DNA of 64,000 nucleotides from Burkholderiales bacterium. GTDB lineage: Bacteria > Pseudomonadota > Gammaproteobacteria > Burkholderiales > JAEUOS01. The position numbers and the translations under genes are program-made. The notes below the pieces were generated by a model. That model worked only from the letters and a program-made list of their open reading frames with translations. It was not told the DNA's origin and did no database searches. Numbering within the stretch: the stretch's first letter is position 1; each line of letters opens with the position of its first letter. The stretch is taken from positions 1,880 through 65,879 of the forward strand of contig JAEUOR010000060.1 of NCBI GenBank assembly GCA_016790635.1, written 5' to 3'. Positions 36,140-64,000 of the stretch are shown here, piece after piece.

Positions 36140-36140
36140 G

Positions 36141-42898: not shown

Positions 42899-42920
42899 GG
42901 GAATTATACCGTCGCAGGCC

Positions 42921-42939
42921 GAGGGGCACCTTGCCCCTC
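42921..42939 (-). other. 8-bp GC-rich hairpin GAGGGGCA-CCT-TGCCCCTC (no U-tract)
   Basis: Perfect inverted repeat read directly. Lies 95 nt downstream of the GT2 gene stop and upstream of the prsT promoter region. It is not a canonical intrinsic terminator. Confidence 0.3.
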
Positions 42940-43033
42940 TCACAGCGAATCACCGGAAGCAATCGACTACTCGCGCATGTTTTGATCCTTGACCGTATGC
43001 GCAGACGCGATCGACACCGGCCAAGCAATTTGC

Positions 43034-44793: not shown

Positions 44794-44848
44794 CGGCAAG
44801 GAACTCCCGAACCTGCCTGAAAAGCCGGTGTCGGCGGTTTTCTGTTGT

Positions 44849-45892: not shown

Positions 45893-46042
45893 TTTCGCTT
45901 TCCCCTTTATCCGAAGACACCTGAGCTGCTGCGTCTTGCAGTGCCGGACCCATAGGCCAGCGCAAACCGCAATACCTCTTTCAGAATGATAGCACGTGCC
46001 GCAACGCGATTCTGAGGTGAACTCCGAGCATATTGCTGCATG

Positions 46043-48823
46043 TCACTCATTTTGTTGCGGATTTGCAACGCGCAACACCTGTGCCAGAAGTTCCGGGGGG
46101 AGGCGCGACCTGGCCCGCGCCAGCGCTGCCGAAATGGTGCCCGAATCCTGTCGCGCGCGCGCCATCACAATTCTCTCGACATAGGGCTCGGCCTGCGCCG
46201 GAATGATCGCCTCCATTCGGTCAAGGAGTGCGTCGGCAAGTTCGAAGTTGCCTCGATCATGCTCCAGTTGCGCCCAGTTGCGATAAACCTGAGGCTGCAC
46301 GGGGAACGCGATGCGCGCACGCTCGAACAGCGCGCGCGCATCCTCGTAAGCACGGTCGCCGCCGACCGGGTCGAAGCGCCGCAGCGCGGAGAGAGAACGC
46401 ACCTGAAGGACGTTGCAAAGCGCGAGCATGACCCAGGGATCATCGGGAAAGCGCGCCAACGCCTCCTGGCCGGCAGCCTCGGCAGCGCCAAGTTCTGCAC
46501 TGAACTCAACCCAATCGAAGCCTCGTTCCGCCCTGCGAATGCGATCCATGGCCGGTTCCAGCAACCCGAAAACGCGTCGCCGATGGAACTCCCTTTCTTC
46601 CGGCATGCGCCGGACCGCCTGTTCGCGCAGCAGCATCGCCATGGTCGGTCTTGGCTCATTCACCCACTGCGAGGCATGCAGCATCACCTCTGCATCTATC
46701 AGTCGCGCCACGGCGATGCCGCTGCCAAGGCAGAGCGCACCGCCGATGATCGCCAACGCCGCCCCGTTCAAGTGTCTCCCGACCTCATCGGATGTGCGAC
46801 GCGCCCCAAGCACCCCACCCATGACGACACACAGCACCGGCAACACTAGCAGCGGCAGCAAAACCGCCACCCGCAGGCCCCAGACGAATCCGTCGTCGCC
46901 ACGCATGGACCAGGACACCCTTAGCATCAGGTACGAAACGGCGATGACCAAAGCTGCCCCGCCCCAAAAAATCCAGATGGTGCGCGCCCTGGCCGTCTCC
47001 CCTCGCGGCGCACGGATTCCCGGACCACCCCCGGCTAAGCCGCTGCGCGGCGCAACTGCGAACACAAGCAGCGCGAAACCCGACGCTGCGAGCATGGGCA
47101 ACGCCGGGCGCCACGCCGACGTGGCCGCCGCCCCGCTTTCGGCTTGGGTCTCCGTGAGAACGGACACAAAACTGATGAACGCGGATATCAGCGCCAGCCC
47201 CGTCGCTGCTGCCAGCACATTGGCGTCGGCATCCGGCTGCCAGGCCGGCGGATCGTCGATAGCGGCGATCAGCACGGCCGCTGCGGCAAATGCCATCAGT
47301 CGTGTGGTCAATATCGGCACGTTGATTTGCGCGTCCAGCCAGTAGACCAGCAACGCAGCCGCCAAGCCGCATCGGATCGCGAACGCTTGCCAATCCGGCC
47401 GTGAACCGCCAGGCACCGCCGACAGGCCGCGAAAGCGCCAGGCCGCCCGCGCCAGCATCGCGATCCACCCTGCCGCCGCGCCCAGACCGAACGCAGGCGC
47501 TACGAAGGCCGCGAACAGTTGCCACGCCGCAAATGCCCCGCAGGCGGCCGCCAAGAGGCTGACCGCGCACCAGGCGATGGCCGGACCCGCTGCCGCGTCG
47601 CCGAACATGGCGCGCGCCCCCCCGTGCAGGGCCAAGCAGAATATCGCCCAGTACGCGAGCCAGCCAAGGATTCCATAGTTGAGGACGATGTCGTAGACAT
47701 CGGCATGCAAGCGATCGTAATTGGTGACCGCCCAGTAACCTTCCAGATGCATGACCGACTCGGGAAGATGTCGGTAACCCCGCTCGTAGGCCAGATCAGG
47801 GCCCCGCCCGATCAGAAGCTCGCCAAGCTTCATTTCTGCCAGTGCGGAACGACCTGCCTGCCACAAGCCGAAACGGATTTCAATGCTGCGCGACGAAGCC
47901 TGGGTGCGCTCGGTCGCCGCGCTGCCCGGCTCGAATACCAGCCGTTGCAAGAACGGCTGGTGCTGCGCCCACTGGCGTGGCGCTTCGAAGAGGTTGATCA
48001 CGAGCATTGCGGCGACAAGCGCGACTGGCGCTGTACTCAACCAGGCCACACCCCGCCACGCGCCGCGACGGGCGAGCAAGCACGCCGCGAACACAAACCC
48101 CGCTACCAGCAGCGCAAGGACCGGCCCGCGGCTCTGGGTGGCATAGATCGCGGCGCACTGGCACAGCGCAAGCAATCCCCACGGCAGGCGCTCCCACCTC
48201 GTGAATCCCGAGGTCATCACACGCGCCAGGGTAGGTACCAAAGCCATCGCAAGGTATGCAGCGAGAAAGTTCGGGTTGCCGAACGAACCGTTGACCCGCT
48301 CGGGGTCGCTGATGACAAACACATAAAAGTCGAGCCCGAGGCGTTGTTGCAACGCATACGCCGCTGGAATCACAGAGCCGATCACAAAGGCATCGCTTAA
48401 CTGACGCATCCGCCCCGGCGCACGGGCCAGCAGGACGGTGGCTGTGAAAAACATGCCGCAGGCGATCCATGAAAGCAGGCCTTCGCGTCGGAACTGCGTT
48501 CCGTAGAACGCAGCGGCGGGCGCAGCTGACCAAATTGCGGACAATGAGGCCACCAGGACAAAAGCGGCCATCGCGGCCAGCGCGACACGGGCGTGAAGGT
48601 CCAGGCGCATGCTGCCGATGTTCCCTGCCGCCAGCGAAGCGGCGAATGCAGGCGCCGCGAGCAATACGGCCAGCGCGAGCTTGGGAACCATGAAGCCACG
48701 CTCCACCGCGACACTGCCGATCACCGGGACGGCCGCGAAGACGCCGACCACGCACAAGAATGCAATTGTCCCTGCGGCGCTCTGCGCGCCCGCCGCGGCT
48801 TGCGCTGCCGATACCTTAGTCAT
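46043..48823 (-). CDS. O-antigen ligase/polymerase-like (Wzy_C-type) polytopic membrane protein with a C-terminal TPR-like domain
   Basis: Trimmed to the ATG at 48823, which overlaps the upstream stop by 8 nt. Family-typical motifs GSFGNPNFLAAYL, ATQSRGPVLALLV, IEIRFGLWQ and HADVYDIVLNYGILGW. About 20 hydrophobic segments. The last roughly 230 aa are soluble helical repeats. Confidence 0.75.
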   Translation of the reverse strand: MTKVSAAQAAAGAQSAAGTIAFLCVVGVFAAVPVIGSVAVERGFMVPKLALAVLLAAPAFAASLAAGNIGSMRLDLHARVALAAMAAFVLVASLSAIWSAAPAAAFYGTQFRREGLLSWIACGMFFTATVLLARAPGRMRQLSDAFVIGSVIPAAYALQQRLGLDFYVFVISDPERVNGSFGNPNFLAAYLAMALVPTLARVMTSGFTRWERLPWGLLALCQCAAIYATQSRGPVLALLVAGFVFAACLLARRGAWRGVAWLSTAPVALVAAMLVINLFEAPRQWAQHQPFLQRLVFEPGSAATERTQASSRSIEIRFGLWQAGRSALAEMKLGELLIGRGPDLAYERGYRHLPESVMHLEGYWAVTNYDRLHADVYDIVLNYGILGWLAYWAIFCLALHGGARAMFGDAAAGPAIAWCAVSLLAAACGAFAAWQLFAAFVAPAFGLGAAAGWIAMLARAAWRFRGLSAVPGGSRPDWQAFAIRCGLAAALLVYWLDAQINVPILTTRLMAFAAAAVLIAAIDDPPAWQPDADANVLAAATGLALISAFISFVSVLTETQAESGAAATSAWRPALPMLAASGFALLVFAVAPRSGLAGGGPGIRAPRGETARARTIWIFWGGAALVIAVSYLMLRVSWSMRGDDGFVWGLRVAVLLPLLVLPVLCVVMGGVLGARRTSDEVGRHLNGAALAIIGGALCLGSGIAVARLIDAEVMLHASQWVNEPRPTMAMLLREQAVRRMPEEREFHRRRVFGLLEPAMDRIRRAERGFDWVEFSAELGAAEAAGQEALARFPDDPWVMLALCNVLQVRSLSALRRFDPVGGDRAYEDARALFERARIAFPVQPQVYRNWAQLEHDRGNFELADALLDRMEAIIPAQAEPYVERIVMARARQDSGTISAALARARSRLPPELLAQVLRVANPQQNE

Positions 48824-49943
48824 CGCGGGCCTTGCGCAAAACCAGCCAGCGCGGCGAGCGAAAGCGGGCGATGCGCGAATAAACGGCAACGTAACCCACG
48901 GCGAAAGCTGCGCACCCGACCTGCAGCGCCAGGGTGTTGTTCCAGAAGAGCGTAGCCGGAACAACACCGGCGCCAGCAACGGTCCAGAGATAGGGTGCAG
49001 TGAGCGCGTTGCGTTGGGTGCGATGCACTGCCAGATGCGTGCCGATCAGCCAGCGCACCAAACGCTTGTAAACCAGATGGTGCAGGTGCGCGACATCCGG
49101 CAAGCCGGGGTGGCTGCGGCGGATCACCACGCGGCGGTAGATCGTAAACAAGGTCTCGAAGATGGGATACGAACACACCAGTACCGGAAACCAGGCTGAA
49201 ACCCCAGGATTGCGCGACACCAGGAGGATCAGGAGGACCGCGATCCAGAAACCAATCAGGTACGCCCCGCCGTCGCCCATGTAGATCAAGCCGCGCGGGT
49301 AGTTGAGCAGCATGAAACCCGTGATCGCACCAACCGCAGTCAGCGCGCACGCCAAGACGGCAATGTCTCCTGACTTGAAGGCCACATAGGCGATGCCGAG
49401 CAGGATCAGGACCGCCACGCCGCCCGCAAGACCGTTGAAACCGTCGATCAGGTTGAACGCGTTGGCAAGCCCTGCAACGGCAAAGCAGGTGAAAAAGACC
49501 GCCACGACCGGCAACGCCAGGACGCTAGCGAGCATCGCGATGTCGATGCGGGTAATCCAGGCCTCCAGCAAGTACCCGGCCACTGCGGCCGAGCAGACGG
49601 CGGCACCCAGCCGCAACCAGATACTCAAGCCCTGCAGAAAATCTTCGATCAGCCCGGCACAAAAAACCGGCACAGCTGAGACGAGCAGCAAAATACCAAT
49701 GCGCGCCGCGTCAGAGGCCCCCGGCGCGTCATCTCCGAGTCGAACCAGCAGGCTGACCAACAGGCCGGCCGCGATTCCCACGCCGCCGGCCCGCCCGTAA
49801 CCGCGCAAGTGCGCAGGGCGCACCCAACCCGCCCTGCGCGTTGCAAACAGATGTCTCTGGTTGCGGTTGCGCGTCAGATTGCCGCGAATGAGCAGCAGTG
49901 TGACAAGGAGGGAGACGGCCAGCGCAGCGAAGATGAATGCCAA
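48816..49943 (-). CDS. WecA/MraY-family polyprenyl-phosphate N-acetylhexosamine-1-phosphate transferase (GT4 family of PNPTs)
   Basis: Polytopic. Signature NAFNLIDGFNGLAGG and a downstream MGDGGAY motif. TTG start, so the start is uncertain. Confidence 0.83.
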   Translation of the reverse strand: MAFIFAALAVSLLVTLLLIRGNLTRNRNQRHLFATRRAGWVRPAHLRGYGRAGGVGIAAGLLVSLLVRLGDDAPGASDAARIGILLLVSAVPVFCAGLIEDFLQGLSIWLRLGAAVCSAAVAGYLLEAWITRIDIAMLASVLALPVVAVFFTCFAVAGLANAFNLIDGFNGLAGGVAVLILLGIAYVAFKSGDIAVLACALTAVGAITGFMLLNYPRGLIYMGDGGAYLIGFWIAVLLILLVSRNPGVSAWFPVLVCSYPIFETLFTIYRRVVIRRSHPGLPDVAHLHHLVYKRLVRWLIGTHLAVHRTQRNALTAPYLWTVAGAGVVPATLFWNNTLALQVGCAAFAVGYVAVYSRIARFRSPRWLVLRKARDD

Positions 49944-50163
49944 ATCGGCTCCAGCGTACTGTCACGGAACATGGTTTTGCAGCCGCACGCGCCGCACCCG
50001 GTCAAAGGATCGGCCGACGTCGTTGCACGTTGCAAGTAACTCGCTTTCAATCGCAGAGTTTTCTCGCCGCGGATTCTATTGGAACCCTGCCATTCACCAG
50101 ACATGCGGCGCCTTGGAGCGGCGCCCAATACAGCCCGCCCGCCAGATATCATGCACGTCGTTC

Positions 50164-51339: not shown

Positions 51340-52009
51340 GCGATGTCTCGCTGGTCGACGGCGGTGCCGCCGCCGGCGCCGGTTCCCGCCACTTGCCGGC
51401 AGCGGTCAGCTTGCCTTTCAAACCGGGAAGATTGAATCCGCCCAGATAGGCCCGGTGAGCGCTTGCCAGCGCCTTGTCAAATTCCCCAACCTCGAAGTAC
51501 GCGAGTCCCAGGTTGTACTGAAACACCGGGCTCGCGATACCACTCGCCTCGGCAACCTTCAGTTGCTCGAGAGCTCCCTTGCGGTCGCCCTTCTTGCCCA
51601 GAAACGTCGCAAAAATCATGCGCACCATGCCGTCATCAGGCCGAAATCGCACCGCGCGTTCGAAGTAGCAGTCGATCGTGCGACCCGAGCCCGTGGGCTT
51701 GCTCTTCTTTTCACGCTCGGCGAGGCGCATCATGGAGACCAGTGCGCGCGTATGGTTCGGGAACCTTTCCAGCGTGTAGGAAATATCGCCTCCGAGCGGC
51801 GCCGTTATACCCTTGATTAAGCCTTCGACCTGAGGAGTAAAGTGTGCATTCTCGACAATAGGAAGCTTGTCCTTATCGTGGCGGTAATCGTATGGTCCAT
51901 ATCTGCCAGGCGCAGGCTGTGGAGTGCCACAGCCACCCAAATCCTCGCGCTCCTGCGCAACCGCGCCCCAGATTACAGCCAAAAATACCAAGGGTAACAA
52001 TCCACGCAT
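51308..52009 (-). CDS. Secreted TPR-like protein, family not recognised
   Basis: Trimmed to the ATG at 52009. Signal peptide MRGLLPLVFLAVIWGAVAQ. TPR-like helices near the C-terminus (PVFQYNLGLAYFEVGEFDKALASAHRAY). The 3' end overlaps the next gene by 32 nt. Confidence 0.55.
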   Translation of the reverse strand: MRGLLPLVFLAVIWGAVAQEREDLGGCGTPQPAPGRYGPYDYRHDKDKLPIVENAHFTPQVEGLIKGITAPLGGDISYTLERFPNHTRALVSMMRLAEREKKSKPTGSGRTIDCYFERAVRFRPDDGMVRMIFATFLGKKGDRKGALEQLKVAEASGIASPVFQYNLGLAYFEVGEFDKALASAHRAYLGGFNLPGLKGKLTAAGKWREPAPAAAPPSTSETSRGSEEPAKPQ

Positions 52010-52429
52010 CGCACCGCTCCCTTCCACCCCAACGGCCCCCGCCCGCTGCCCACGACAATGCAATCAAAGACCGAGCCAAGGCCGCCTCAAACTGCAGCAC
52101 CTCGGAATTCAAGCGATCCGTATCAATGATTTACGAAGTGGCTGAAGCTATTGTGCCATAACCCGGCTTCCACCGGAAAATGAACGTGCGACGATGCAAG
52201 CCAGGGACGCCAACACGCGCCCCGCGCTCAACGGCTAGCCAGCGGCGGCTTGGATTTATGAAAAACACCCCTGCTTCCTGCCGAGCATCACGGTCCCGAG
52301 TCTGAGGTGACCGAGTTTTTTCGATACGGCTCGCTCTTAGGGCCGCGCTGCCAATTCGCCGCGGCATTTCCACTCTCGGCTCAGTGCAGCCCATCGCGAG
52401 ACTTCCACGCCGCAACATGCCGCCGCGGA

Positions 52430-54337
52430 CTACCCGGCGGCAACTTGCTCGGTTGCTGTCTTGGGCACAGCGTCGTGCTGTTGGCACCATAACTCGAATT
52501 GGACTACATCAAATATTGAAGGCGACATTTCTTGTTGACCCGTACGATGGCGATCGAGGTCCTGAACGATGGTGTCTACGCGATAAATCCCGCGCTCGCG
52601 CGCGGAGCGGCTGGCAAGCGTGTCACGCAGCGGCTCATAGAGCGGGCCCGCGAACCACTGAGACGATGGCACGGGAAAGCCCATCTTGTCGACTCTCGCG
52701 CGTACCACTTCCGGGATGCGCCCGCGCATCCCTTCACGTTGAATGAACTTGTTCCAGGGGCCGCTCATCCGCCAGCGGTCAGGCAAGCGGAACAAGAATT
52801 CCACCAGTCGGTAGTCCAGGAACGGCACTCTCGCTTCAACCGAATGCGCACTCGAATTACGATCCTCGACGCGCAAAATGCGCGGCAATGGGTCGCTGTG
52901 TACCGACCGAACCAGCGCCGAACGCAATCGATAGTCGGGCGCCTCGTCGAGCCGATCGCTGACGTGATGCGCCATTTCCGGCGCCAGCCAGCGATGCGAA
53001 CGAAACGCGCGCAATTCGCGGTGGCGGGAGGCCACCTGCCATCCAGGCAGGCGCGCGGCAAGCGTGCGCCCCAGAAATCCGAGCTGAGTCAGGAACAATC
53101 GCGTCGCGTCCTCGCCGTGAGCGCGACTGTAGTCCGCAAGCTCTCGCCACGCCTCTCGCACGCGACCGCCCCGCAGCATGCTGTGCCAATAGTTGATGAA
53201 GTAGCTCGGGTAGCCCGCAGCGGTTTCATCCGCGCCTTGTCCGTTGAGAACCACTTTCAAGCCCCGCGCCGCAGTGAGCCGCATGAGTTGAAAGCCGACG
53301 ACGGCGGTGAGTGAGTACACCGGTTCATCCTGAAAATGCAGTACCTTCGGCAGGTCATCCCAAAGCTTGAGCGCATCGGTATTCAGGAGCACCGGGGTCG
53401 CGGCGGTTTGCTTGAAGGTGGCTTCCAGGTACTGGCTCTCGTCGAATTCGCGCGGGGTAAAGCAAAATGCCATGAGGGGGTAATCGGTACCGGCCTCAGC
53501 ACGGATACGCGCCGCAGCGCATGCGATGGCCGTCGAATCAAGTCCACCCGATAGGTGCACGCCAACAGGCACGTCGCTGCGCATGTGCAGGCGCATAGCG
53601 TCCTCAAACAGTTCCGCGTAATCGGCCGCCGGATCTGCCATCTCCTCAGGGGAAAAGTCATCGAGGCCCCAGTAGCGCCATTCACGATAGCGGCCGTCGA
53701 ACTCCATCTCGAAAGCGCAGCCAGCACCGACCTGCTCGATCCCGGCGAAGAAGCATTGCGCCGAACGATCCAGTGCACCACGCAGCAGAAAATCCGCTGC
53801 AACGCGCCAATTGGTCTGATCGGCGTATTCCCCTGAGGCACGGATTGCCTTGATCTCGGAAGCGAACATGGCCGTACTGGCACTTCGATAGCGAAACAGC
53901 GGCTTGATTCCGAGACGATCGCGCGAGCCGAATAAGCGCCGCTCATACTTGTCGAAAATCACGAATGCCCACATGCCATTCAAGCGATTCACGCATTCGC
54001 GGCCCCATTCAAGGTAAGCACGCAACAACACTTCGGTGTCGCCGGAGGAATGAAACTGATGCCCACGCGCAGCCAGTTCGCGGCGAAGTTCCAGGTAGTT
54101 GTAGATCTCGCCGTTGAACACGATGGCGAATCGGTTGTCGGCGGATACCATCGGTTGATGACCCGCGGGCGAGAGATCAAGGATGGAAAGTCTGCGAAAA
54201 CCGAGCCCGACTCCACCATCGCTGAAATAACCCTCGTCGTCCGGTCCGCGATGGTATATGGCGTCAGTCATGCGACGCACCTGTTGCATGTCTGCAGCCG
54301 AGCCATCCAGACGGAGGCATACAACCAATCCGCACAT
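52430..54337 (-). CDS. Glutamine-hydrolysing asparagine synthetase family amidotransferase (exosortase-A-system-associated type)
   Basis: N-terminal nucleophile MCG (MCGLVVCL). Ntn amidotransferase domain plus the synthetase PP-loop (VGVHLSGGLDS). 635 aa. Confidence 0.9.
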   Translation of the reverse strand: MCGLVVCLRLDGSAADMQQVRRMTDAIYHRGPDDEGYFSDGGVGLGFRRLSILDLSPAGHQPMVSADNRFAIVFNGEIYNYLELRRELAARGHQFHSSGDTEVLLRAYLEWGRECVNRLNGMWAFVIFDKYERRLFGSRDRLGIKPLFRYRSASTAMFASEIKAIRASGEYADQTNWRVAADFLLRGALDRSAQCFFAGIEQVGAGCAFEMEFDGRYREWRYWGLDDFSPEEMADPAADYAELFEDAMRLHMRSDVPVGVHLSGGLDSTAIACAAARIRAEAGTDYPLMAFCFTPREFDESQYLEATFKQTAATPVLLNTDALKLWDDLPKVLHFQDEPVYSLTAVVGFQLMRLTAARGLKVVLNGQGADETAAGYPSYFINYWHSMLRGGRVREAWRELADYSRAHGEDATRLFLTQLGFLGRTLAARLPGWQVASRHRELRAFRSHRWLAPEMAHHVSDRLDEAPDYRLRSALVRSVHSDPLPRILRVEDRNSSAHSVEARVPFLDYRLVEFLFRLPDRWRMSGPWNKFIQREGMRGRIPEVVRARVDKMGFPVPSSQWFAGPLYEPLRDTLASRSARERGIYRVDTIVQDLDRHRTGQQEMSPSIFDVVQFELWCQQHDAVPKTATEQVAAG

Positions 54338-54367
54338 GTTTCTGCTCCGGTCGCGCCTGCGCGCTCC

Positions 54368-55852
54368 TCAATTTGCTTTGCCGTTATTCCCAGCTTTGCC
54401 GCCATGCCGCTTGAAAATCCATCCGAGGACCTCGCGCAACTCATCGCGTAAAGGCCCCCCTGACAGCCACAAGACGCCGACATAAATGACGGCACCGACT
54501 CCGGAACATACTGCCAGACGTGTCACAGCAATGCCGAGTTCATCGCCCTTGATCAACAGCTGCAGAACCAGCACCGCGACCGTCATGAACAAGGCGGCGT
54601 TTGTCGGCGCACGCAGCTGGTCCCAAAACATCCGCCATGGCAGCTCGATTTCTCGGAAGGCCTCGCCTATCATGCGAGTCATGACGAGCGGATAAACCAC
54701 CACCCACGCAGTTGCAACTCCCACCCCGCCGCCAGAATGTGCACCGACCAGGAATGCAAGCGGCATGACCACAAACAGGACGGCATTGTAGGCAGCGAGA
54801 AACGTGGTCCTAAAGCGCGCTCGCAGAACGGGCGCAATCAACACGTCGATCGACCTGATCAGGGACAGGACGGACAGTAGCTGCAGGACCGGCACCATCG
54901 GTAGCCATTTGTCCGACAACACGACTCGAACCAAATCCTCTGCAACCAGGATGAAACCGAGGCAGATCGGCGTGGAGACACTGGCCGTTAGACGCAGCCC
55001 ACGCAGCAGCATCTTGCGCATCGCGACACGGTCGTCTTGCAATGTCGCCATCAGTGGTACCGACATTTGATTGACGAGCGAGGAAATGCGCGTGACCGGA
55101 ATACTCGCAAGGTCGCGTGCCATGGTGTAGAACCCCAGTGCCACTTCCCCGGATACTTTTCCTAGAACGAGGCTATCGCTCTGATCGTACAGAGTCCACA
55201 TCAGACGCGAGCCGAATGTGGCGGAGCTGAAATCGAGGATTTCCCGCCTTCTGGATCCACTCACGCGCCAACCGGGACGCCAAGGCCAATAAAGGTACAA
55301 CGCAAACGACTGAACCGCGGCGCGCGCCAGCATGCCGTAGATCAGCGCCCACACGCCCGCGCCATTCCAGGCCAGTGCCAATACAGTCACTAGCGAAACA
55401 ACCGCTCCGCTGACTTCCGCCTTGGTGACCTTGTCCAACTGTAATTGCTTGCGCAGCAAGCCATCCGGGATGATGGCCAGCGCGCTGATCAGCAGCGTCA
55501 GTCCAACGACTCGCAACACGTCTGCGAGCGCGGGCGCATTGAACCAGTCACCGATGAAAGGCGCGGCGAAGTAAAGTGCCGCATAGCAGATGCTGGCGAG
55601 GCTGAAGCCGAGGTAAAAACAGAAATTGAGTTCTTCAACGGACAAGTCGCGAAACTGCAAGACAGCGGCGCCAAGTCCAAACTCCGAGATTAGGACCAGG
55701 ACTGATATCCAGATTCCCGCGAGCGCCATCAAGCCATAGTCCGACGGGCTCAGCCATCGCGCGACCACAATCGTCGTGATGAAGGAAAGGACCTGCAATA
55801 CACCGCGCGACCAGACCATCCAGAAAACGGATTTCGCGACTTGTTCTTTCAT
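54368..55852 (-). CDS. wzx: MOP-superfamily polysaccharide flippase (Wzx-like)
   Basis: 494 aa with about 14 TM helices. The N-terminus is typical of polysaccharide biosynthesis proteins (KSVFWMVWSRGVLQVLSFITTIVVARWLSPSDYGLMALA). Confidence 0.8.
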   Translation of the reverse strand: MKEQVAKSVFWMVWSRGVLQVLSFITTIVVARWLSPSDYGLMALAGIWISVLVLISEFGLGAAVLQFRDLSVEELNFCFYLGFSLASICYAALYFAAPFIGDWFNAPALADVLRVVGLTLLISALAIIPDGLLRKQLQLDKVTKAEVSGAVVSLVTVLALAWNGAGVWALIYGMLARAAVQSFALYLYWPWRPGWRVSGSRRREILDFSSATFGSRLMWTLYDQSDSLVLGKVSGEVALGFYTMARDLASIPVTRISSLVNQMSVPLMATLQDDRVAMRKMLLRGLRLTASVSTPICLGFILVAEDLVRVVLSDKWLPMVPVLQLLSVLSLIRSIDVLIAPVLRARFRTTFLAAYNAVLFVVMPLAFLVGAHSGGGVGVATAWVVVYPLVMTRMIGEAFREIELPWRMFWDQLRAPTNAALFMTVAVLVLQLLIKGDELGIAVTRLAVCSGVGAVIYVGVLWLSGGPLRDELREVLGWIFKRHGGKAGNNGKAN

Positions 55853-55901
55853 CCGCGTTTACCAAAGGATGGCAGGTGCGCTTGCGGCGAATCCAAGGCG
55901 A

Positions 55902-57914
55902 TCAAACTGGACTCTTCCTCGCCACGCCCAGATGCAATGCAAGCGACTGGGCCGCACGGAGCATGCGCTGCCGCCAATCGATGTCCAGCAGCAATTTGGA
56001 AGGATGATGTCCCGTTACCTCGCGCACCCAGTAGGCCAATGCGGCTGATCGCATCCACGTGGCCGGCATGCCGGTCCGCTCAGCCAATTTTACGACCGCC
56101 GCGTTTTCCACACGATCGGCACCGCTGCCCTGCAGCCAATCGGAGAAAACGTCGCTCCACTGGCGGCCGGTTTTGAACATACGCCTATAGCAGATATAGT
56201 GAAGCAGGTCATTGCTGGAGAAGTCCTGCTCCGCCCAACGGTCCCAATCGATCAAAGCAAGCCGCCCTTGGTCTGCGTTAAAAAGCACATTGCCCCACCA
56301 ATAGTCGCCATGGGTAAACCCGACGGAAGGCGGCTCGGTCTCTCCGCGCTCCGCGAATTCCAGCATGGGTGCGACATATTGCCGCTCGCCTGCGTCCGGC
56401 AATCGTGTCAGTAAATCGTGCAGCGGCGCCACGACCATCTCCCGCCAGACGTCCGCCGGTTCAAGCACGGCCGCGGCGGCGTCACGATAGGTCTTCAGTT
56501 CAATCAACAGGTCGAACGCTTGCTGGTCACCGCATTCGCGCTCCTGCTCCGAAATGCCGGCGTACGATGTACCGCTGACGTGGGACTCCACCGTATACGG
56601 AACACCATGAAACCGGTCGCTATATAGCGGCTGCGGACAGAGAAACGACTTGTGCTTGTGCGCAAGGCCATGCGCCCTCTCGAGGCCCGCAAAATTCTTG
56701 GCGACCCGCGATTCGCAGACAGGATCGAGCGCGACGCGAACAACCGCGCGGCTCTGCAAGGTGACAATCAAGCCCGCGGTGGAGGTCGCGCTTACCTTGA
56801 CTCTGGGAAAACTCCGGTCGCCCTGGATCGAAAGGCGACGGCGCGTATCGTCGGCAAGTTCCTGAATCCAACTTGGTTGTACCTTATCGCGTCCGGCCAC
56901 GACTCCGTACGAGGGAGTGAATGCACGGCTGCGCTCTAGCCTTTGCTTTATTCTCTTGCGCCACCCACCGGCCTCTCGGCCCGTCCTGGGCTCACTGCCG
57001 TCTAGCGCATATAGTTCGTGGAAGGTTCTGTAGTCTGGAATTGGCGCGAAAAATGAAGTACCGGGGAAGCCCGCCTCCGCCAACAAGTCACGCAGCTCGT
57101 TGCAGCCGTAAGTATAGGTTCTGTAAGGGTGCCCAGTGGTGCGACCAACCAGCATATCGGCCGCCCAGCGCGGCACAAGCGCAGCGTACTTGACACCAGT
57201 GTGATCCTCGGGCGCACCGAGAAAATAGGTATATCCGTAGCGGTTTTCAATACCAACGTAAAGATGTCCGTCCGGTTTGAGAATGCGCCGAACCTCACCG
57301 AGAAACGCGAGCTGCCCTTCGCGCACTGGTTGGCTCCCTTCCGCAGCCGACCATTCAAGTACCCCGTTCAGCACCACGCAATCGAAACTCCCCTCAGGAA
57401 AAGGCAATGGTCGGGTATCACCCGCACAAACAGCGCGAACATTGGTGAAACCCATCTCCCTCGCCCGCAGGGCAAGAAAGGTCACCCTCTCCAAGGTCAA
57501 GTCGCAGGACACCACTTCGCGCGCCCAGCGCGCCAAGCCGATCGATGTGATTCCGCTTCCACATCCGAGGTCGAGAACGCGTCGATTCTGCAGGGGCGGC
57601 AATACCGCCTTGAACGCAGCGCGGTTCTCGTCGGTAAAGACCGTGTGCAGTGCACGGCGATTGCGCTCTGGCGCTTTTGCGATCTGCTCGGCCAGCGCGC
57701 TTCGCCAATCGCCGTTGCGGCTTTGCCCAATCAGTTCACGCATCCGATCTTGCGGCAAAAGTTCATGGTAGTAAGCACTGTTTTCACGAACGATCGGGAT
57801 GCCGTCTTGGACCGGATACGAAGTAGAACAGCCTGAACAATTCAGGGTTGCCGAATCGGGCCAATTCAGGTGCGTGCGGCATTTTGGGCAGAGCAACTGC
57901 ATAGGATTTTTCAT
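55902..57914 (-). CDS. Tri-domain protein: Trm112-like zinc ribbon + class I SAM methyltransferase + aminoglycoside-phosphotransferase-type kinase
   Basis: Trimmed to the ATG at 57914. CxxC...CxxC ribbon (LLCPKCRTHL...CSGCSTSYPVQDGIPIV). Methyltransferase motif I VLDLGCGSGITS. Kinase Brenner motif HGDYWWGNVLF followed by IDWDRW. Confidence 0.8.
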   Translation of the reverse strand: MKNPMQLLCPKCRTHLNWPDSATLNCSGCSTSYPVQDGIPIVRENSAYYHELLPQDRMRELIGQSRNGDWRSALAEQIAKAPERNRRALHTVFTDENRAAFKAVLPPLQNRRVLDLGCGSGITSIGLARWAREVVSCDLTLERVTFLALRAREMGFTNVRAVCAGDTRPLPFPEGSFDCVVLNGVLEWSAAEGSQPVREGQLAFLGEVRRILKPDGHLYVGIENRYGYTYFLGAPEDHTGVKYAALVPRWAADMLVGRTTGHPYRTYTYGCNELRDLLAEAGFPGTSFFAPIPDYRTFHELYALDGSEPRTGREAGGWRKRIKQRLERSRAFTPSYGVVAGRDKVQPSWIQELADDTRRRLSIQGDRSFPRVKVSATSTAGLIVTLQSRAVVRVALDPVCESRVAKNFAGLERAHGLAHKHKSFLCPQPLYSDRFHGVPYTVESHVSGTSYAGISEQERECGDQQAFDLLIELKTYRDAAAAVLEPADVWREMVVAPLHDLLTRLPDAGERQYVAPMLEFAERGETEPPSVGFTHGDYWWGNVLFNADQGRLALIDWDRWAEQDFSSNDLLHYICYRRMFKTGRQWSDVFSDWLQGSGADRVENAAVVKLAERTGMPATWMRSAALAYWVREVTGHHPSKLLLDIDWRQRMLRAAQSLALHLGVARKSPV

Positions 57915-58105
57915 TGTGAAGTATAAGCTGGTGAATTGCCATGCTGTCTCAGAGCGAAAGCACGTGCTGAGAGCAGTTGATGGTATCGCATTTTGGGCCA
58001 ACAACGATCGCACAACACGTGCCAAGTCGATATGGCTTGACGAGATGGGTTCCAGGACTCAAACACAAATTGTGCATGCTGCGCAGCGAATCCGGTACCG
58101 GGAAC

Positions 58106-59338
58106 TCATAGGCAATCGAGCAGGGCCGCGAACTCCCTGCTGCGCGCCTCGCGCGACATCCCCGTCACGACATCCACGGCAGGAACACCTGCCCGGCCTT
58201 CGGCAAGCTGTCGAACGAAATTCATAAGCGTCGATTCGATCGCATCAGCCGATTCCAGCTTGGCGATGGCATCGATACCGGCACGGCGCACCAGGTCCGC
58301 CGTGTCACCAGCCGGATCCGTGATTGCAAGGATCGGTCTTCCCGCACGCAGGTACTCGTAGGCCTTGGCCGGGATCTGGTCGTTGCACCCTGCGTCCTGC
58401 ATGATGAGCAATGCATCGACGCTCAGCATTTCCGCCAGCGCGTCCAGATATGGCAACGATGGTGCCAATTCCACGAACTCACCGACCCCTTGCTCCGCCG
58501 CGAGTCGGCGGATGTGGTCGTCGTGCGCCGATGCGCGAAAACGCAGCCGCACCTGCGCCGGCGTCAGGCGCCCCGTCGCATGCAGTCGCCGCAGGGCGCT
58601 GAACAGATGCGTCGGATCACGCTCCTGCGGGTAGAGGATGCCGCTGTGCAGGACGATCAGTGGACCGCCTTTGCGCCCGGCCCTTTCCGCGCGCAGCGCC
58701 GCCTGCGCGAAACTGCCTTCGTCAAAGCCGTTCTCCAGCAGCAGCATGCGATCAGCCGATCGCGGATAGCGCTCGCGGTAGGTGCGGACCGCGCCGGGTG
58801 TCGTGAATGTACAGGCCCTGGCTTGCGCTGCAGCGGTTGCCTCGATCGCCAAGAATTGCCTGTGGATCACCGGGTCGGCCGGGTAGCCGGGCTGCGCCAT
58901 GGGATCGCGAAAGTCGGCGATCCAGGGTAGGCCGCTGCGGCGCGCGACCTCCGCGCCGATCAGGTGCGCGGTGGCGAACGGATAGGTGGACCAGATCATC
59001 GCAGGCGCGAATTCCCGCACCATGCGCACGCCCTGCCGGACGCCGTCGTACCTCCAGCTCACCCATCGATCCGGGCGCGCCGTGAAAGCGGCGTATCGCC
59101 CGAACAGCGCCAGGTGACGTGCCGAATCGAGCGCGAAGGCACGGCGCACCACGAGTCCGGCCGGAACTTCGGCGAGCAAGTCGTCGCTCGTTTGCACATA
59201 GGCGCGCGGGTGGGCAGTCAACACCAGTGGTTCCCAGCCGTGCGAGGGTAACTGTTGCACGAAGCGCAGCGTGCGCTGTATGCCGCTGCTGCCGGACAGG
59301 GGCGGGAAATGGTAAGCGATCATGAGGATGCGCTTCAT
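58106..59338 (-). CDS. GT4-type (GT-B fold) glycosyltransferase
   Basis: Trimmed to the ATG at 59338, which overlaps the upstream stop (ATGA). MKRILMIAYHFPPLSGSSGIQRTLRF is a typical GT4 N-terminus. The 185 upstream codons of the track ORF are Arg/Gly-rich and overlap the real upstream gene. Confidence 0.8.
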   Translation of the reverse strand: MKRILMIAYHFPPLSGSSGIQRTLRFVQQLPSHGWEPLVLTAHPRAYVQTSDDLLAEVPAGLVVRRAFALDSARHLALFGRYAAFTARPDRWVSWRYDGVRQGVRMVREFAPAMIWSTYPFATAHLIGAEVARRSGLPWIADFRDPMAQPGYPADPVIHRQFLAIEATAAAQARACTFTTPGAVRTYRERYPRSADRMLLLENGFDEGSFAQAALRAERAGRKGGPLIVLHSGILYPQERDPTHLFSALRRLHATGRLTPAQVRLRFRASAHDDHIRRLAAEQGVGEFVELAPSLPYLDALAEMLSVDALLIMQDAGCNDQIPAKAYEYLRAGRPILAITDPAGDTADLVRRAGIDAIAKLESADAIESTLMNFVRQLAEGRAGVPAVDVVTGMSREARSREFAALLDCL

Positions 59339-60189
59339 GCAGGCTCTCCCAGGCCGGCAAGCCAATCCAGCGTTATTTCCTCGACGCGCGCCCGCCAGGC
59401 CGCGCTGGAAAAGGTATGGTCCGCTCCCTCGATGGTGACGCCGAGGACCCCGCCCGTCCCGACCAGACCGTGCCACGCCGGATCGGCTTGCGCGAACTCG
59501 ACGAATTCCTTGGCCGTGTAGTCGCGTTCGCTCAGCACCAGGCGCACGCTGCCGCGAAAGCCGCGCAGTCCTGCCGCCATGCGTTCCTGGAAGCTGCCGG
59601 CCTGCAGTGCATTTGCGCCGCGCGACAGCCGCAGTTTGCCCAGCCATTCCGCAAGCGCCGTCCTGACCGCGACGCCGCCTCCGAACAGCTTGCGCCAGAA
59701 CGCCACCGTCAGCAGCCGTTGCCTGTAGTAGTGGCGAACCTCGGTGCGGGCCAGGCTTGCTGCCGAGCGTACCCACGGATTGAGCAGGCACAGGCCGCCG
59801 ATGCAGGCATCGTGGCGGGACTGCATGTACAAAAGGGCTGCTGAAGCGCCATCGCACAGGCCCCACAAGCCGATGCTCCGCACTGCGTCGCACTCGCGCT
59901 TGAGCACGGCGATTGCGGCCTCGATGTCCCCATCCACGGCTTCAAAACCGGGAAAGTCGCCATCGCTGTCGCCCATGCCGCGCAGATCGAAGCGTAACGA
60001 AGCGTAACCCGCCTCGGCCGCGTGCCGCGCCAGCAACACGAATTGCCTGTGACTACCGACACGGTACTGCGGGCCGCCCACCACCACCACCAGACCTGCC
60101 CCCTTAGGGTTTTTGGGGACGCACACGACCCCGCACAAGCGTGCCCCGCCGCTGTTGAACAGGACTGCCTTCTCGACAAAGCCGCTCAC
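59335..60189 (-). CDS. Alpha/beta-fold protein with a Cys at the nucleophile elbow (one of the exosortase-A-associated 'hydrolase 1/2' pair)
   Basis: GTG start at 60189 overlapping the upstream TGA (GTGA). Elbow IGLWGLCDGASA (G-x-C-x-G). Candidate acid LSERDY and His GADHTF. Confidence 0.8.
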   Translation of the reverse strand: MSGFVEKAVLFNSGGARLCGVVCVPKNPKGAGLVVVVGGPQYRVGSHRQFVLLARHAAEAGYASLRFDLRGMGDSDGDFPGFEAVDGDIEAAIAVLKRECDAVRSIGLWGLCDGASAALLYMQSRHDACIGGLCLLNPWVRSAASLARTEVRHYYRQRLLTVAFWRKLFGGGVAVRTALAEWLGKLRLSRGANALQAGSFQERMAAGLRGFRGSVRLVLSERDYTAKEFVEFAQADPAWHGLVGTGGVLGVTIEGADHTFSSAAWRARVEEITLDWLAGLGEPA

Positions 60190-61046
60190 GCAGATTCCGC
60201 CGCGAACGCGAGCGTGGCCGCGAGCAGGCCCGGCGCGGTCTCGATTTCCTGGGTCTGCCAGAACCCGCTGCCGGTAATCGGCCGTGCGTCCACTTGCCAC
60301 CCGGCGGCCTGCCACTCCGCAGTGGCGGTCCGGGACACCGGCGACAAGGTCGGTTCCGCTGCCCCAGAAACTTCGAACCAGCCGACCACTCCAGTGCCGG
60401 GCGGCGGCGACAGGCGCGCGGCGTCCAGACCGGCGGCGACTTGCGGCGACAGCGAATAGCCGGCCACCTCGACGGTCTCTCCGTCGAGCAGCGCCTCGCG
60501 CGGCCCGCGGCGCGCGTCGCCGCCGTTGTCCCGCCCTGTCAACCGGTCGCCGGCGAGCTTCAAGCGCAGGAACTGCTGCAGATGCTGCCGCCCCGAGACG
60601 ACCGGTTGCCAGAAGATCATGCCGGGGCAGTCGGCCATGGACGGCGCCGCGGCGCTTGCCAAAAGGCAGCCCGCGCGCAGGCCCCACAACCATACCGGCA
60701 GACCGGCATGATCGGCCAACCACTCAGCCCCCGAGACGCCGTCGGCAACCCAGAGGTCCCACGCCGCTGCGCTGAAATCCGCCTCGCTGTCGCCGCAGCC
60801 GAAGTGGTCCTGCTGCAGCACCAGCCATCCGGCCGCTGCCAGCGCGCGCGCCTGCAAAGCCGCCATCCGGCGCGCCTTGTTCATCTCTTCGGCAAACGGA
60901 TGCAGATAGAGGCAGGCGGCCAGCGGCGGCCGATTGACCGGCGCGTGCAATGCGCAGAACAAGCGGCCCTTTTGTCCGTCGCGGTAGAAGACTTCAAGCG
61001 ACGGCGGCGCGAAGGCGATGTCAGGCACCGAGCTTTTGACGCGCAA
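60186..61046 (-). CDS. Alpha/beta-fold protein lacking an obvious Ser/Cys nucleophile (second member of the exosortase-A-associated 'hydrolase 1/2' pair)
   Basis: Alpha/beta-fold layout (LYLHPFAEEMN...QQDHFGCGDSEADF). The elbow position reads WLWGLRAGCLLA (G-x-R-x-G). No C-terminal His motif seen by eye. Start is either TTG 61046 (overlaps the ACP gene) or GTG 61028. Confidence 0.72.
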   Translation of the reverse strand: MRVKSSVPDIAFAPPSLEVFYRDGQKGRLFCALHAPVNRPPLAACLYLHPFAEEMNKARRMAALQARALAAAGWLVLQQDHFGCGDSEADFSAAAWDLWVADGVSGAEWLADHAGLPVWLWGLRAGCLLASAAAPSMADCPGMIFWQPVVSGRQHLQQFLRLKLAGDRLTGRDNGGDARRGPREALLDGETVEVAGYSLSPQVAAGLDAARLSPPPGTGVVGWFEVSGAAEPTLSPVSRTATAEWQAAGWQVDARPITGSGFWQTQEIETAPGLLAATLAFAAESA

Positions 61047-61272
61047 ATCCGACCAGCGAACCCAGGGTTACGAAGACCGCGCCGTCGACCTCGTCATCTT
61101 CGACCGCGAAACCGCAACGTTCCTCGAGAAGCGTCAGGATCGAGACGACGGCCATCGAATCGAGTTCTGGAATCGCGCCCAGCAGAGGCGAATCCTCCGA
61201 CAACATGGCAGCCCGCTCACCCAGGCCCAGTACCTCACCCAAAATCGCTACTACTTCACGCCTGATGTCCAA
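61021..61272 (-). CDS. Acyl carrier protein (exosortase-A-locus type)
   Basis: I place the start at TTG 61272 (GGAG 6 nt upstream), giving 83 aa. Phosphopantetheine-attachment context PELDSMAVVSIL. The longer track ORF (to 61491) adds an Arg/Cys-rich, non-ACP-like N-terminus. Confidence 0.75.
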   Translation of the reverse strand: MDIRREVVAILGEVLGLGERAAMLSEDSPLLGAIPELDSMAVVSILTLLEERCGFAVEDDEVDGAVFVTLGSLVGFARQKLGA

Positions 61273-61397: not shown

Positions 61398-62657
61398 ATG
61401 GCAGATCAAAAAGCAATGGCTCGATCGCCGCAGCGTGACATCCCTCCGCACCGTTCGGTGCCCTGCTATCCCGTTTTCGGCCAAGCGACATTCGACGGCC
61501 CGCGCGAGTCTCCGCTACCCTGCCTGCTCGACCGACCCGGCGTCATACTCACTGCCAGCGGTCGCGTCGCGACTGCCCTGGCACTAGCCGGGTTCGGCAT
61601 CGGACCGGGTGACCGGGTGCTGTTGCCCTCCTACCATTGCCCGACCATGGTCACTCCGGTATTGCACGTCGGAGCGACCCCGATTTTCTACGCGCTGGAC
61701 GACAACGGAGCCCCGTGCCAGGCGAGCATCGAGGCGCAAGCGGCTGACAACAGGCCGCGGGCAATTGTCGTGGCCCACCTGTTCGGCATCGGTCTCGATC
61801 TGCGCGAGCTGCGTACCTGGTGCACCAAGCATGCCGTCGTGCTCATCGAGGATTGCGCGCACGCGCTGTTCGGCAGTGTCGGCGGTCAGCCACTAGGCGA
61901 CAGCGGCGACGCGGCGATCGGTAGCCTGCCCAAGTTCCTGCCCCTGCACGAAGGCGGCTGCCTGGTGTTCAAGCGCCCCCCCGAACGTCGCCCCGCCCTG
62001 ACCCGGAGCGGCATGCTGCGTCAAATCAAGGCCGCCGCGAATCTCCTGGAAGCAGGGTCGCGCGATAGCCGGCTCGGCGTCTGGTCGAGGCCATTGCAAG
62101 CATTGTTTGATCTCAAGCAGCGTCTGCGCCGCACCGCGCAGTATGAAGACGGGGGCGCAACGCCGCGCGACGGTTCGAGCCACGCACTCGCCGCGCCAGT
62201 TACGGTCGCCCCGCCTCCGCCCGCCAATGCCTGGATGGACGAAGCACGACTTCGAACCGCGGACATGGCGCGGCTGCCGACACGAGTCACGCGCTGGCTG
62301 GCCGCGCGGGCGCATCGCGAACGCATCGTTGCGTTGCGCCGCGCCCGCTTCGCTGAGTATCTCGCCCATGTCCGGAACCTCGAAGGGGTGCGTGCGGCAG
62401 TTCCAATACTGCCGGCGGGCAGCGTGCCATATGTGTTTCCTATCGTCGTCGAAAAGCCTGACCAGGTATTCGCCGCCTTGCGAACAGCCGGTGTCCCTGC
62501 CCTGCGCTGGGATCGCAGGTGGCCCGGAACACCCGCCCGTCCCGAGGACGTCGCGACGCGCTGGTCGCACGCCCTCCTGCAGCTTCCGTGTCACCAAGAT
62601 CTGGATTGCTGTGACATGGGTCACATACTTGCGATCTGCCGTGCCGCCGCGGCCTGA
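61398..62657 (+). CDS. DegT/DnrJ/EryC1-like aminotransferase-fold protein
   Basis: Divergent from the ACP operon. LLPSYHCPTMVTPVLHVGATPIFY, VVAHLFGIGLDL, LIEDCAHALFG and a candidate PLP Lys in GSLPKFLPL. Alternative Met at 61416. Confidence 0.72.
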   Translation: MADQKAMARSPQRDIPPHRSVPCYPVFGQATFDGPRESPLPCLLDRPGVILTASGRVATALALAGFGIGPGDRVLLPSYHCPTMVTPVLHVGATPIFYALDDNGAPCQASIEAQAADNRPRAIVVAHLFGIGLDLRELRTWCTKHAVVLIEDCAHALFGSVGGQPLGDSGDAAIGSLPKFLPLHEGGCLVFKRPPERRPALTRSGMLRQIKAAANLLEAGSRDSRLGVWSRPLQALFDLKQRLRRTAQYEDGGATPRDGSSHALAAPVTVAPPPPANAWMDEARLRTADMARLPTRVTRWLAARAHRERIVALRRARFAEYLAHVRNLEGVRAAVPILPAGSVPYVFPIVVEKPDQVFAALRTAGVPALRWDRRWPGTPARPEDVATRWSHALLQLPCHQDLDCCDMGHILAICRAAAA

Positions 62658-62866
62658 ATGCACCGGGCCATTCAAGCTGCAGGCGCCGCGGTGCCGGGGG
62701 TCCGCCGGGCTGCCTGCGGCGTGGAAATGCGGCACCAAAAGTAACCTTCTCCCGGCTTCTGGCCGTCCGCGCGTTCCGGTATGATCCGAAGACCAAAGAC
62801 ATTCCTGTCTCCTGTCTGCCTGCGCCGCCGCCAATCGCGCATTGCGCGTGTGAGCGCTGCGACCCG

Positions 62867-64000
62867 ATGCCCGCCGAATTGTCTTCATTGCGAAATTTTC
62901 ACGTCGCGTCAGACGCCGCACGCCGCGCCGAAGTCGTGACAGGAACGACGCGGCCTGCCGCCGACTTCGAATGGCAACTCCTCGCGCCCGGCAGCTTTTC
63001 CGCAAGGCACGCTGAATGGGATGCGTTCAATGACGCATTGTGGAATACGCCGTTGCTGTCGGCGTCCTTCGTCGGGGCCGCCCTGGACCATTTCGGCGAC
63101 GGGTCCGAGCGTCTGGCAGTCGCCCGCGACGTGGACGGCGTTGTCGCGATGACCGTCCTGACCAAGGGCGAGCGTCTTGCCCTCAAGGCGTTCCAGGCTT
63201 CGCAACTGCCGCTCTGCCCGTGGATGCAGCGGCCGGGCAGATCTCTCGACACTCTTGGACGCGCATTGCTTGCTTGCACGCCGCCTTGGAAGCGTGTGTT
63301 GTCGCTCTCGCCACTTGACCCAGCAAAGCTACCGCGCATTCAAGACAATGGCTTGATACACACGAGCCGATACATCGATACCGGTCGCATCGAGTTGCCG
63401 GGCGATCTCGCCACCTTCGAGAGTGGCCTCAGTGCGAAATTTCGCGCCAACCTGATGCGGCGGCACCGCGCAGCGAGCGCTACGTTCGGCGATGTCACCC
63501 TCGAGGTCGAAACGCGCCCCGAACGCATGCAAGCCTGCATCGACCAATATGCTCACCTGGAAGGCGCGGGCTGGAAGGCGGACGCAGGCACCGCGGTGCG
63601 CGCAGGTGAAGCGCAGTTCGACTTTTATGTCGACATGCTGACAAGACTTGCACAAAAGGAACAAGCGCTGGTATTCCTACTTCGCTTCGGGGCGCGCGTT
63701 GCCGCCATGCAGTTGGCGGTCGCGCGTGATTCACGCCTCTATTTTCTCAAGACCACATACGACGAGGGCCTCGGCGCCCACGGACCCGGTGTGTTGCTGA
63801 AGTGGAAGCTGTTTGAAGCAGTTCTCACCGGTCAGTTGCCTTTTCGCCGTTGCGACTTGTACGGCCGCGTCAACGATTCGAATCGGAACTGGGTAACCAC
63901 AGGACGCAGCCTGTATCACGCTAACATCTACCGGGGACCTTCAACGGCTGCACTGCACTTGATTTCTCGCGCTTTTCGGTCAGGCAGCGTGGCACCGGCC
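62867..64000 (+). CDS. GNAT-fold CelD/BcsL / FemAB-like acyltransferase family protein, 3'-truncated by the window edge
   Basis: Not in the ORF track because no stop lies inside the window. I translated frame 2 from ATG 62867 to nt 64000 without a stop: MPAELSSLRNFHV...HAEWDAFNDALWNTPLLSASFVGAALDHFGDGSERLAVARDVDGVVAMTVL...YFLKTTYDEGLGAHGPGVLLKWKLFEAV. The pattern resembles CelD/FemAB-type proteins of EPS loci. Confidence 0.68.
   Translation, partial: MPAELSSLRNFHVASDAARRAEVVTGTTRPAADFEWQLLAPGSFSARHAEWDAFNDALWNTPLLSASFVGAALDHFGDGSERLAVARDVDGVVAMTVLTKGERLALKAFQASQLPLCPWMQRPGRSLDTLGRALLACTPPWKRVLSLSPLDPAKLPRIQDNGLIHTSRYIDTGRIELPGDLATFESGLSAKFRANLMRRHRAASATFGDVTLEVETRPERMQACIDQYAHLEGAGWKADAGTAVRAGEAQFDFYVDMLTRLAQKEQALVFLLRFGARVAAMQLAVARDSRLYFLKTTYDEGLGAHGPGVLLKWKLFEAVLTGQLPFRRCDLYGRVNDSNRNWVTTGRSLYHANIYRGPSTAALHLISRAFRSGSVAPA

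Follow-up and report, generated by a model that had tools for sequence, protein, structure and literature searches.

Wastewater and environmental bacteria depend on exosortase A (XrtA)/PEP-CTERM systems to form flocs and biofilms (PMC9850573). Their exopolysaccharide loci carry a cassette composed of a free-standing acyl/peptidyl carrier protein (ACP) and two proteins of the alpha/beta-hydrolase fold, whose families have already been named (hydrolase 1, TIGR03100, and hydrolase 2, TIGR03101). Systems comparable to what we discuss here have been described in antibiotic biosynthesis. In the butirosin pathway, BtrK acts on glutamate bound to an 87-aa carrier protein and turns it into a 4-aminobutyryl-S-carrier (PMC7857480). 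In the vicenistatin pathway (VinN/VinL/VinO) an acidic amino acid is first attached to a free ACP by an adenylating enzyme and then, still on the carrier, decarboxylated by a pyridoxal phosphate (PLP) enzyme (PMC11284099). In other pathways, CmaE, SyrC and LgnA are free-standing aminoacyl-transferases of the alpha/beta fold that form a covalent intermediate from a carrier thioester and pass the group on without hydrolysis (PMC8748450). We have analyzed a stretch of 64,000 nucleotides (from here on, the window) of the Burkholderiales bacterium contig JAEUOR010000060.1, in which three genes of the minus strand at 59335-61272 encode an ACP, hydrolase 2 and hydrolase 1, in this order and with overlapping start and stop codons. 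Judging from its sequence, this trio is the conserved ACP/hydrolase 2/hydrolase 1 cassette of XrtA/PEP-CTERM exopolysaccharide loci, and features shared across the families suggest that the two “hydrolases” are not a pair of esterases but together make up a single enzyme that transfers acyl groups through a cysteine.

The ACP gene (61021-61272, minus strand) encodes 83 aa from a TTG start, with an alternative TTG at 61284, and its stop codon overlaps the GTG start of hydrolase 2 (60186-61028, minus strand) in the sequence GTGCCTGA. The stop of hydrolase 2 overlaps in turn the start of hydrolase 1 (59335-60189, minus strand) in a GTGA. The longest open reading frame (ORF) of hydrolase 2 starts at 61046 and has 286 aa; the residue numbers given here refer to it, the product at NCBI having 280 aa. 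Both proteins match their families nearly end to end and far above the cut-offs, hydrolase 1 with 316.5 bits to TIGR03100 (cut-off 168.45; E 1e-94; profile positions 2-272 of 274) and hydrolase 2 with 284.9 bits to TIGR03101 (cut-off 202.75; E 6e-85; positions 2-263 of 266), and their database copies, which come from a Burkholderiales metagenome-assembled genome (MAG), already carry these family names. The ACP belongs to the Pfam PP-binding family PF00550 (23.1 bits, gathering score 20.8). Its attachment Ser lies within IPELDSMAVV, a motif that is identical in its solved orthologue PDB 2LKI (72.6 bits). The core of this motif, E-L-D-S-M-A, was found in ca. 64 of the 70 ACP homologues at the loci described below, most of them also encoded by 252 nt. 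An original prediction, made from the letters of the window alone, had the gene calls, the motifs, the family assignments and the divergent DegT-like neighbour right, as the coordinates and the TIGR03100 and TIGR03101 scores confirm.

The nucleophile elbow of hydrolase 1 reads W-G-L-C112-D-G, that is, G110-L-C112-D-G, and in the profile alignment Cys112 falls on the Ser of the G-x-S-x-G box of solved serine esterases. Asp223 (LSERD223Y) and His258 (GADH258TF) would complete a Cys-Asp-His triad. At the same place hydrolase 2 has W-G-L-R124-A-G, with Arg124 aligned to the Ser of the solved esterases, and a profile-profile alignment of the two families sets Cys112 on Arg124 (“LWGLCD” on “LWGLRA”). 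The AlphaFold2 (AF2) models of both proteins show a canonical alpha/beta fold, with a predicted local distance difference test score (pLDDT) of 87.6 for hydrolase 1 and 89.4 for hydrolase 2. Outside its own family, the only named match of hydrolase 1 was SglT (46 bits), and the paper on SglT says nothing about its catalytic residues.

Two sets of homologues were used. A genome scan with a peptide pattern provided 80 species-level loci, which served for gene context, hydrolase 2 and the ACP only. Since this pattern itself contained the Cys, we tested conservation of the Cys by searching 1.84 billion cluster representatives without an index, using a query in which one protein was appended to the other. 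Among the representatives (clustered at 50% identity), Cys was present in 138 of the 139 hydrolase 1 domains, while Asp223 and His258 were found in 125 out of 125 each; Asp113, beside the Cys, was conserved in 135 out of 139. Along similar lines, Arg124 accounted for 91 of the 92 residues at that position among 93 hydrolase 2 domains. The Cys was also invariant in the 120 closest homologues of hydrolase 1, and the Arg in the 120 closest homologues of hydrolase 2. In other words, neither protein has the canonical Ser-acid-His triad, hydrolase 1 because its elbow carries a Cys and hydrolase 2 because it has an Arg there and no acid/His pair. Seen at the level of the sequences, each family as a whole has its feature, the Cys triad in one and the Arg elbow in the other, and neither is peculiar to this locus. 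Given that both residues are near-invariant across the families, the locus is a typical member and not a variant. The Cys and the Arg had been put forward as new features of this sequence, which they are not, although the placement of both at the elbow Ser position, the plausible Asp and His of hydrolase 1 and the lack of a canonical triad in hydrolase 2 were all borne out by the family alignments.

A G-x-C-x-G box together with a Cys-His-Asp triad on an alpha/beta fold, as hydrolase 1 has by sequence, is also found in polyhydroxyalkanoate (PHA) synthases (PhaC), which form a covalent thioester intermediate. The pair could then be a PHA-synthase-like condensing or polymerising enzyme that makes an ester or amide oligomer or polymer from ACP-bound monomers at the Cys-Asp-His site, an analogy that the original prediction had drawn. 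The nearly invariant Asp113 could serve as general base, and the substrate that we propose below would bear both a thioester and a nucleophilic amine. However, there was no PHA synthase among the 60 listed PDB sequence matches or the top 50 Foldseek matches of either protein, and neither of them matched any NCBIfam PhaC model. Besides, with ca. 280 aa they are half the size of PhaC and fall in the HGFTG-type subgroup of small esterases, and the context here is an ACP rather than CoA. A kinship to PHA synthases was discarded, as there is no detectable sequence similarity and no preferential similarity of fold in these comparisons, and we consider a polymerising role very improbable.

The closest solved relatives of both proteins, in fold and in sequence, were instead HGFTG-type esterases and lipases: the TTL lipase (7Q4H/9H0Z), PET46 (8B4U), the feruloyl esterases 7Z2X and 3PF8 and Est1E (2WTM), with Foldseek E values from 1e-12 to 1e-16, TM-scores of 0.6-0.78 and profile E values down to 5e-20. 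Monoglyceride lipases were also among the best structural neighbours of both AF2 models in Foldseek. All the HGFTG-type enzymes named here have a Ser-His-Asp triad, unlike hydrolase 1, where Cys takes the place of Ser, and unlike hydrolase 2, which has Arg and neither the His nor the acid.

The case of hydrolase 2 deserves some attention. In the loops that follow beta7 and beta8 there is no conserved His or acid among the 93 family domains. Nevertheless, besides Arg124, the residues E54, N56, R59, D80, Q158, R161, Y197, W263 and E267 are near-invariant in the same domains. Because about a dozen polar residues are kept in this way, the protein is strongly constrained and not a decaying pseudo-enzyme. 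Thus, of the idea that an active enzyme is paired here with a pseudo-enzyme, the triad-less partner stands, and the notion of a protein in decay does not.

The two hydrolases are neighbours in 77 of the 80 loci, and the order ACP, hydrolase 2, hydrolase 1 is kept in ca. 70 of the 80. The junction between the stop of hydrolase 2 and the start of hydrolase 1 is an ATGA in 57 of the 77 loci and a GTGA in another 10 (67/77 together). Moreover, natural fusions of both proteins, 550-640 aa in length, make up at least 82 clusters (50% identity) among the 150 best representatives, with the hydrolase 2 half first without exception. Several of them recur on many independent contigs, and there is even a Joint Genome Institute (JGI) name for them, “hydrolase 1/hydrolase 2”; one, from a Sedimenticola MAG, is annotated merely as “hydrolase 1”. 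At the locus L085 the fusion gene (8001-9698) lies directly downstream of an 82-aa ACP that is 48% identical to ours. Two apparent fusions (L013 and L080) are likely frameshifted read-throughs in long-read MAGs and another (L032) was ambiguous, so that all three were left uncounted. Coupled translation, conserved gene order and, as strong evidence, the many natural fusions indicate that the two hydrolases probably work as a single unit supplied by the ACP. This is the part of the predicted ACP-fed complex that holds; the condensing-enzyme part finds no backing in any similarity to PhaC. It was reasonable to propose a unit that receives acyl groups from the ACP and transfers them, one of its alpha/beta proteins being catalytic and the other not, and this idea is now better supported.

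The same data bear on the possibility that each protein works on its own as an esterase or deacylase in polysaccharide or lipid remodelling, the ACP being a mere neighbour. Both proteins do have the alpha/beta-hydrolase fold, and the loci are rich in polysaccharide-modifying enzymes. But hydrolase 2 would be an esterase without nucleophile, acid or His, and the conserved gene order, the stop/start overlaps and the fusions tie the two proteins into one unit with a carrier protein. Besides, the mature polysaccharide is extracytoplasmic, while inspection of the proteins revealed no export signals (see below). We give hardly any credence to this explanation.

What the unit would be fed with can be read from the genes on the other side of the ACP. 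The window ends in the middle of a divergent operon, and among the window ORFs scanned there was no match to either TIGR03098 or TIGR03099, the ligase and the decarboxylase that in other species usually lie next to the ACP in divergent orientation. A longer assembly of the same DNA (L081), 100% identical to window positions 62600-64000 and running past the window end, contains the rest of the operon. It comprises the DegT-like gene, a gene for a 751-aa protein with PF13480, the TIGR03098 ligase (ca. 65206-66810 in window numbering, plus strand, beyond the window end; 772.8 bits in NCBIfam) and the start of the TIGR03099 decarboxylase (from ca. 66845, plus strand, also beyond the end; 239.6 bits for the fragment). 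The cognate pair, which the original prediction had described as not adjacent, is therefore on the same contig, in the same divergent gene cluster and only 1.2-3 kb past the window end. This arrangement, with the DegT-like gene first, is a minority layout (3 of 53 loci); in 29 of the 53 the ligase is directly divergent from the ACP. A generic acyl-CoA ligase inside the window (7241-9001) was considered and rejected as the partner, being only ca. 25% identical to the cognate ligase family and located among housekeeping genes.

The solved relatives of these two enzymes point to carrier-bound chemistry. The best one for the decarboxylase family was, with a clear lead, BtrK, the L-glutamyl-[BtrI ACP] decarboxylase; it scored 269 bits, and the best diaminopimelate decarboxylase reached 157 bits. 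This search was made with the Rhodocyclus orthologue from L056, because the copy of this organism is only partly assembled. For the ligase, the best solved relatives were adenylation domains of non-ribosomal peptide synthetases (NRPS) and stand-alone loaders of free carrier proteins. The Asp of the F-D-x-S core motif, which in adenylation domains binds the amino group of the substrate, is retained in 46 of the 54 members of the ligase family. From the BtrK-like decarboxylase, the carrier-loading type of ligase and the precedent of VinN/VinL/VinO, it seems most likely that the cassette makes an ACP-bound omega-aminoacyl thioester. Such an omega-aminoacyl-S-ACP is a product that needs an off-loading enzyme.

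Putting all this together, we propose that the decarboxylated aminoacyl group on the ACP is off-loaded through the Cys of hydrolase 1 to an acceptor, with hydrolase 2 as the partner, a model to which we would assign as a whole a probability of roughly 55%. By homology, the TIGR03098 ligase would first load an amino acid on the 83-aa ACP, probably an acidic one tethered via its side-chain carboxylate. The BtrK-like PLP decarboxylase would then strip the free alpha-carboxylate from the tethered residue, leaving an omega-aminoacyl-S-ACP, e.g., of the beta-alanyl or 4-aminobutyryl type. Hydrolase 1 and hydrolase 2, which are co-translated and in many lineages fused, would work as a heterodimer, in which Cys112 may attack the thioester to give an acyl-S-enzyme, with His258 and Asp223 of the near-invariant triad as the relay. 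In the next step the acyl group would be transferred, not hydrolysed, and the acceptor would be cytoplasmic; the most plausible one is a sugar of the polysaccharide, bound to a nucleotide or a lipid, which would take the group on an amino or hydroxyl. Hydrolase 2 would give no nucleophile. Its elbow Arg124, together with the conserved Arg59, Arg161, Gln158, Tyr197 and Glu267, would form a positively charged conserved pocket that may bind the carrier protein or an anionic acceptor. As to where this happens, no signal peptide or membrane segment was seen in the ACP, hydrolase 1 or hydrolase 2 when the N-termini were inspected by eye, without a predictor. For this reason the chemistry is probably cytoplasmic and the processed PEP-CTERM protein, one of the acceptors suggested in the original prediction, is unlikely to be acylated directly.

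Several facts weigh against this model. We found no functional study of these families in the literature and no biochemical data for any member, and we infer the substrate of the ligase, the acceptor and the role of hydrolase 2 alike. Alpha/beta enzymes with a Cys-His-Asp triad can be plain hydrolases, dienelactone hydrolase being an example, and in the Foldseek matches listed the close structural neighbours of both proteins were all esterases or lipases. There are also loci (e.g., L012, L016, L025 and L085) with the trio but with no ligase or decarboxylase within 8-10 kb, and because of them the acyl donor may differ or be encoded elsewhere.

One alternative is that hydrolase 1 is a thioesterase that hydrolyses the ACP thioester, either releasing a free small molecule, such as an omega-amino acid or an acyl product, or proofreading a mis-loaded carrier, with hydrolase 2 as an adaptor. 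Free-standing type II thioesterases of the alpha/beta fold often accompany carrier proteins (PMC8748450). Both proteins have their closest solved structures among the hydrolases, which is also what public annotation calls them. However, the editing thioesterases use Ser, whereas all but one of the 139 hydrolase 1 domains have Cys. A Cys is more typical of enzymes that hold an acyl group and pass it on. Simple hydrolysis would not need a dedicated partner either, co-translated or fused and with a conserved polar pocket, and a costly route through ligase, ACP and decarboxylase to a free common metabolite is implausible in a polysaccharide locus. We believe that this alternative is unlikely, and acyl transfer through the Cys is the reading that we prefer.

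Acyl transfer of this kind could have a further consequence. If the Arg/Cys heterodimer puts the omega-aminoacyl group of the cassette on a lipid- or nucleotide-linked sugar, the polysaccharide or lipid would gain a free primary amine, and this could be the acceptor nucleophile where exosortase A attaches the cleaved PEP-CTERM proteins. We regard this extension as improbable, a speculation at this stage, but if it were true the long-sought acceptor nucleophile of exosortase A would be a free primary amine on the polysaccharide or lipid.

Some of the neighbours may also take part. Counts of neighbouring genes come from targeted BLAST with named queries, an all-against-all clustering of ORFs having been dropped because it was too noisy in these high-GC genomes. 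The DegT/DnrJ/EryC1-like PLP enzyme (61398-62657, plus strand), which opens the divergent operon that reaches the ligase and the decarboxylase, has an atypical C-terminal half and matches Pfam PF01041 (92.8 bits) only with its N-terminal half. A DegT-like gene is present in 22 of the 80 loci. The same variant, 32% identical over its full length, is found at L085 (4391-5470), near the ACP and the fusion, where neither ligase nor decarboxylase is encoded within 8 kb. Its recurrence there is a hint that the enzyme belongs to the same pathway, in which it may make an amino-sugar acceptor. The 751-aa protein with similarity to FemAB-like GNAT enzymes (PF13480 in Pfam) lies between the DegT-like gene and the ligase and apparently consists of two GNAT halves; its N-terminal part is encoded at 62867-64000 (plus strand) and the gene continues outside the window to ca. 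65122 (L081 2217-4472). Proteins of the PF13480 type were found within 10 kb of the trio in 35 of the 80 species loci, and also in the distant L085. On the other side, a gene for a 410-aa protein (58106-59338, minus strand) overlaps hydrolase 1 with an ATGA, a fourth coupled gene that was absent from the trio as first predicted. This protein gave no match in Pfam, NCBIfam or the PDB sequences, and by eye its N-terminus looks like that of a GT-B glycosyltransferase. In 17 of the 80 loci a homologue is found no more than 10 kb from hydrolase 1, mostly just downstream, and the protein is a possible downstream partner.

Other genes of the polysaccharide array bear on a possible XrtA/PEP-CTERM context of the cassette. 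The window contains PrsK (25256-27355), PrsR (27352-28716), PrsT (40030-42807) and EpsB_2, together with a TIGR03013 priming transferase (23601-25019), and the TIGR03098 and TIGR03099 genes follow on the same contig. An exosortase A gene did not appear among the window ORFs scanned, so XrtA would have to be encoded elsewhere in the genome. The array includes both an ABC polysaccharide exporter of the Wzm/Wzt type and a Wzx-type flippase (36783-38350 and 54368-55852, both minus strand), and their presence in one array implies two export routes or two glycans. It also includes, at 55902-58025 (minus strand), a class I S-adenosylmethionine (SAM) methyltransferase domain fused to an APH-type phosphotransferase (kinase) domain. 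Another ORF of the alpha/beta fold (43993-45045, minus strand) keeps the usual Ser at its elbow, V-G-Y-S-G-G-G, and has a hydrophobic N-terminal segment like that of a lipoprotein; it matched the class III PhaC model weakly and only around the elbow. A 978-aa ORF (46043-48979, minus strand) has no family match, and the adjacent 2-kb bin (48001-50000) has an unusually high AT skew of 0.335. Much of the array (28000-46000 and 52000-58000) has a GC content of 0.58-0.61, against 0.65-0.70 in the flanking housekeeping genes, which is compatible with horizontal acquisition of some parts of the locus.

As far as the families are concerned, their names and their typical arrangement were already known. 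The new elements with respect to the current annotation are the family-wide pattern of Cys and Arg, the widespread fusions and the link to BtrK. With a universal Cys-Asp-His hydrolase 1, a universal Arg-elbow hydrolase 2 that is often fused to it and a BtrK-like decarboxylase, a vague annotation becomes a pathway that is concrete and testable and that, if true, would provide the polysaccharide or its anchor with an aminoacyl decoration.

Among the known systems, the BtrI/BtrJ/BtrK and VinL/VinN/VinO modules offer a parallel in chemistry. As in these, a free ACP of ca. 85 aa, an ATP-dependent loader and a PLP enzyme similar to diaminopimelate decarboxylase are encoded in one locus, and on L081 we find loader, free carrier and alanine-racemase-fold PLP decarboxylase together. 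VinN resembles the TIGR03098 ligase in being an adenylation-type enzyme that retains the amino-binding Asp, while BtrJ is an ATP-grasp enzyme and not an adenylating ligase. The Btr and Vin modules differ in that they make antibiotics, in Gram-positive bacteria, and BtrH and VinK, the enzymes that do the off-loading there, are not known to be Cys enzymes of the alpha/beta fold. For the off-loading step a functional resemblance to CmaE, SyrC and LgnA is proposed. LgnA uses Ser, and SyrC and CmaE use an active-site Cys. All three deliver to another carrier protein in NRPS assembly lines and have no Arg-elbow partner. The closest likeness of all is to the TIGR03100/TIGR03101 cassette itself. The matches are full-length and above the cut-offs, the two genes are adjacent to each other and beside the ACP, and the cognate ligase and decarboxylase are on the contig. 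The locus departs from it in local order only, as the DegT-like gene and the gene for the 751-aa PF13480 protein stand here between the ACP and the ligase.

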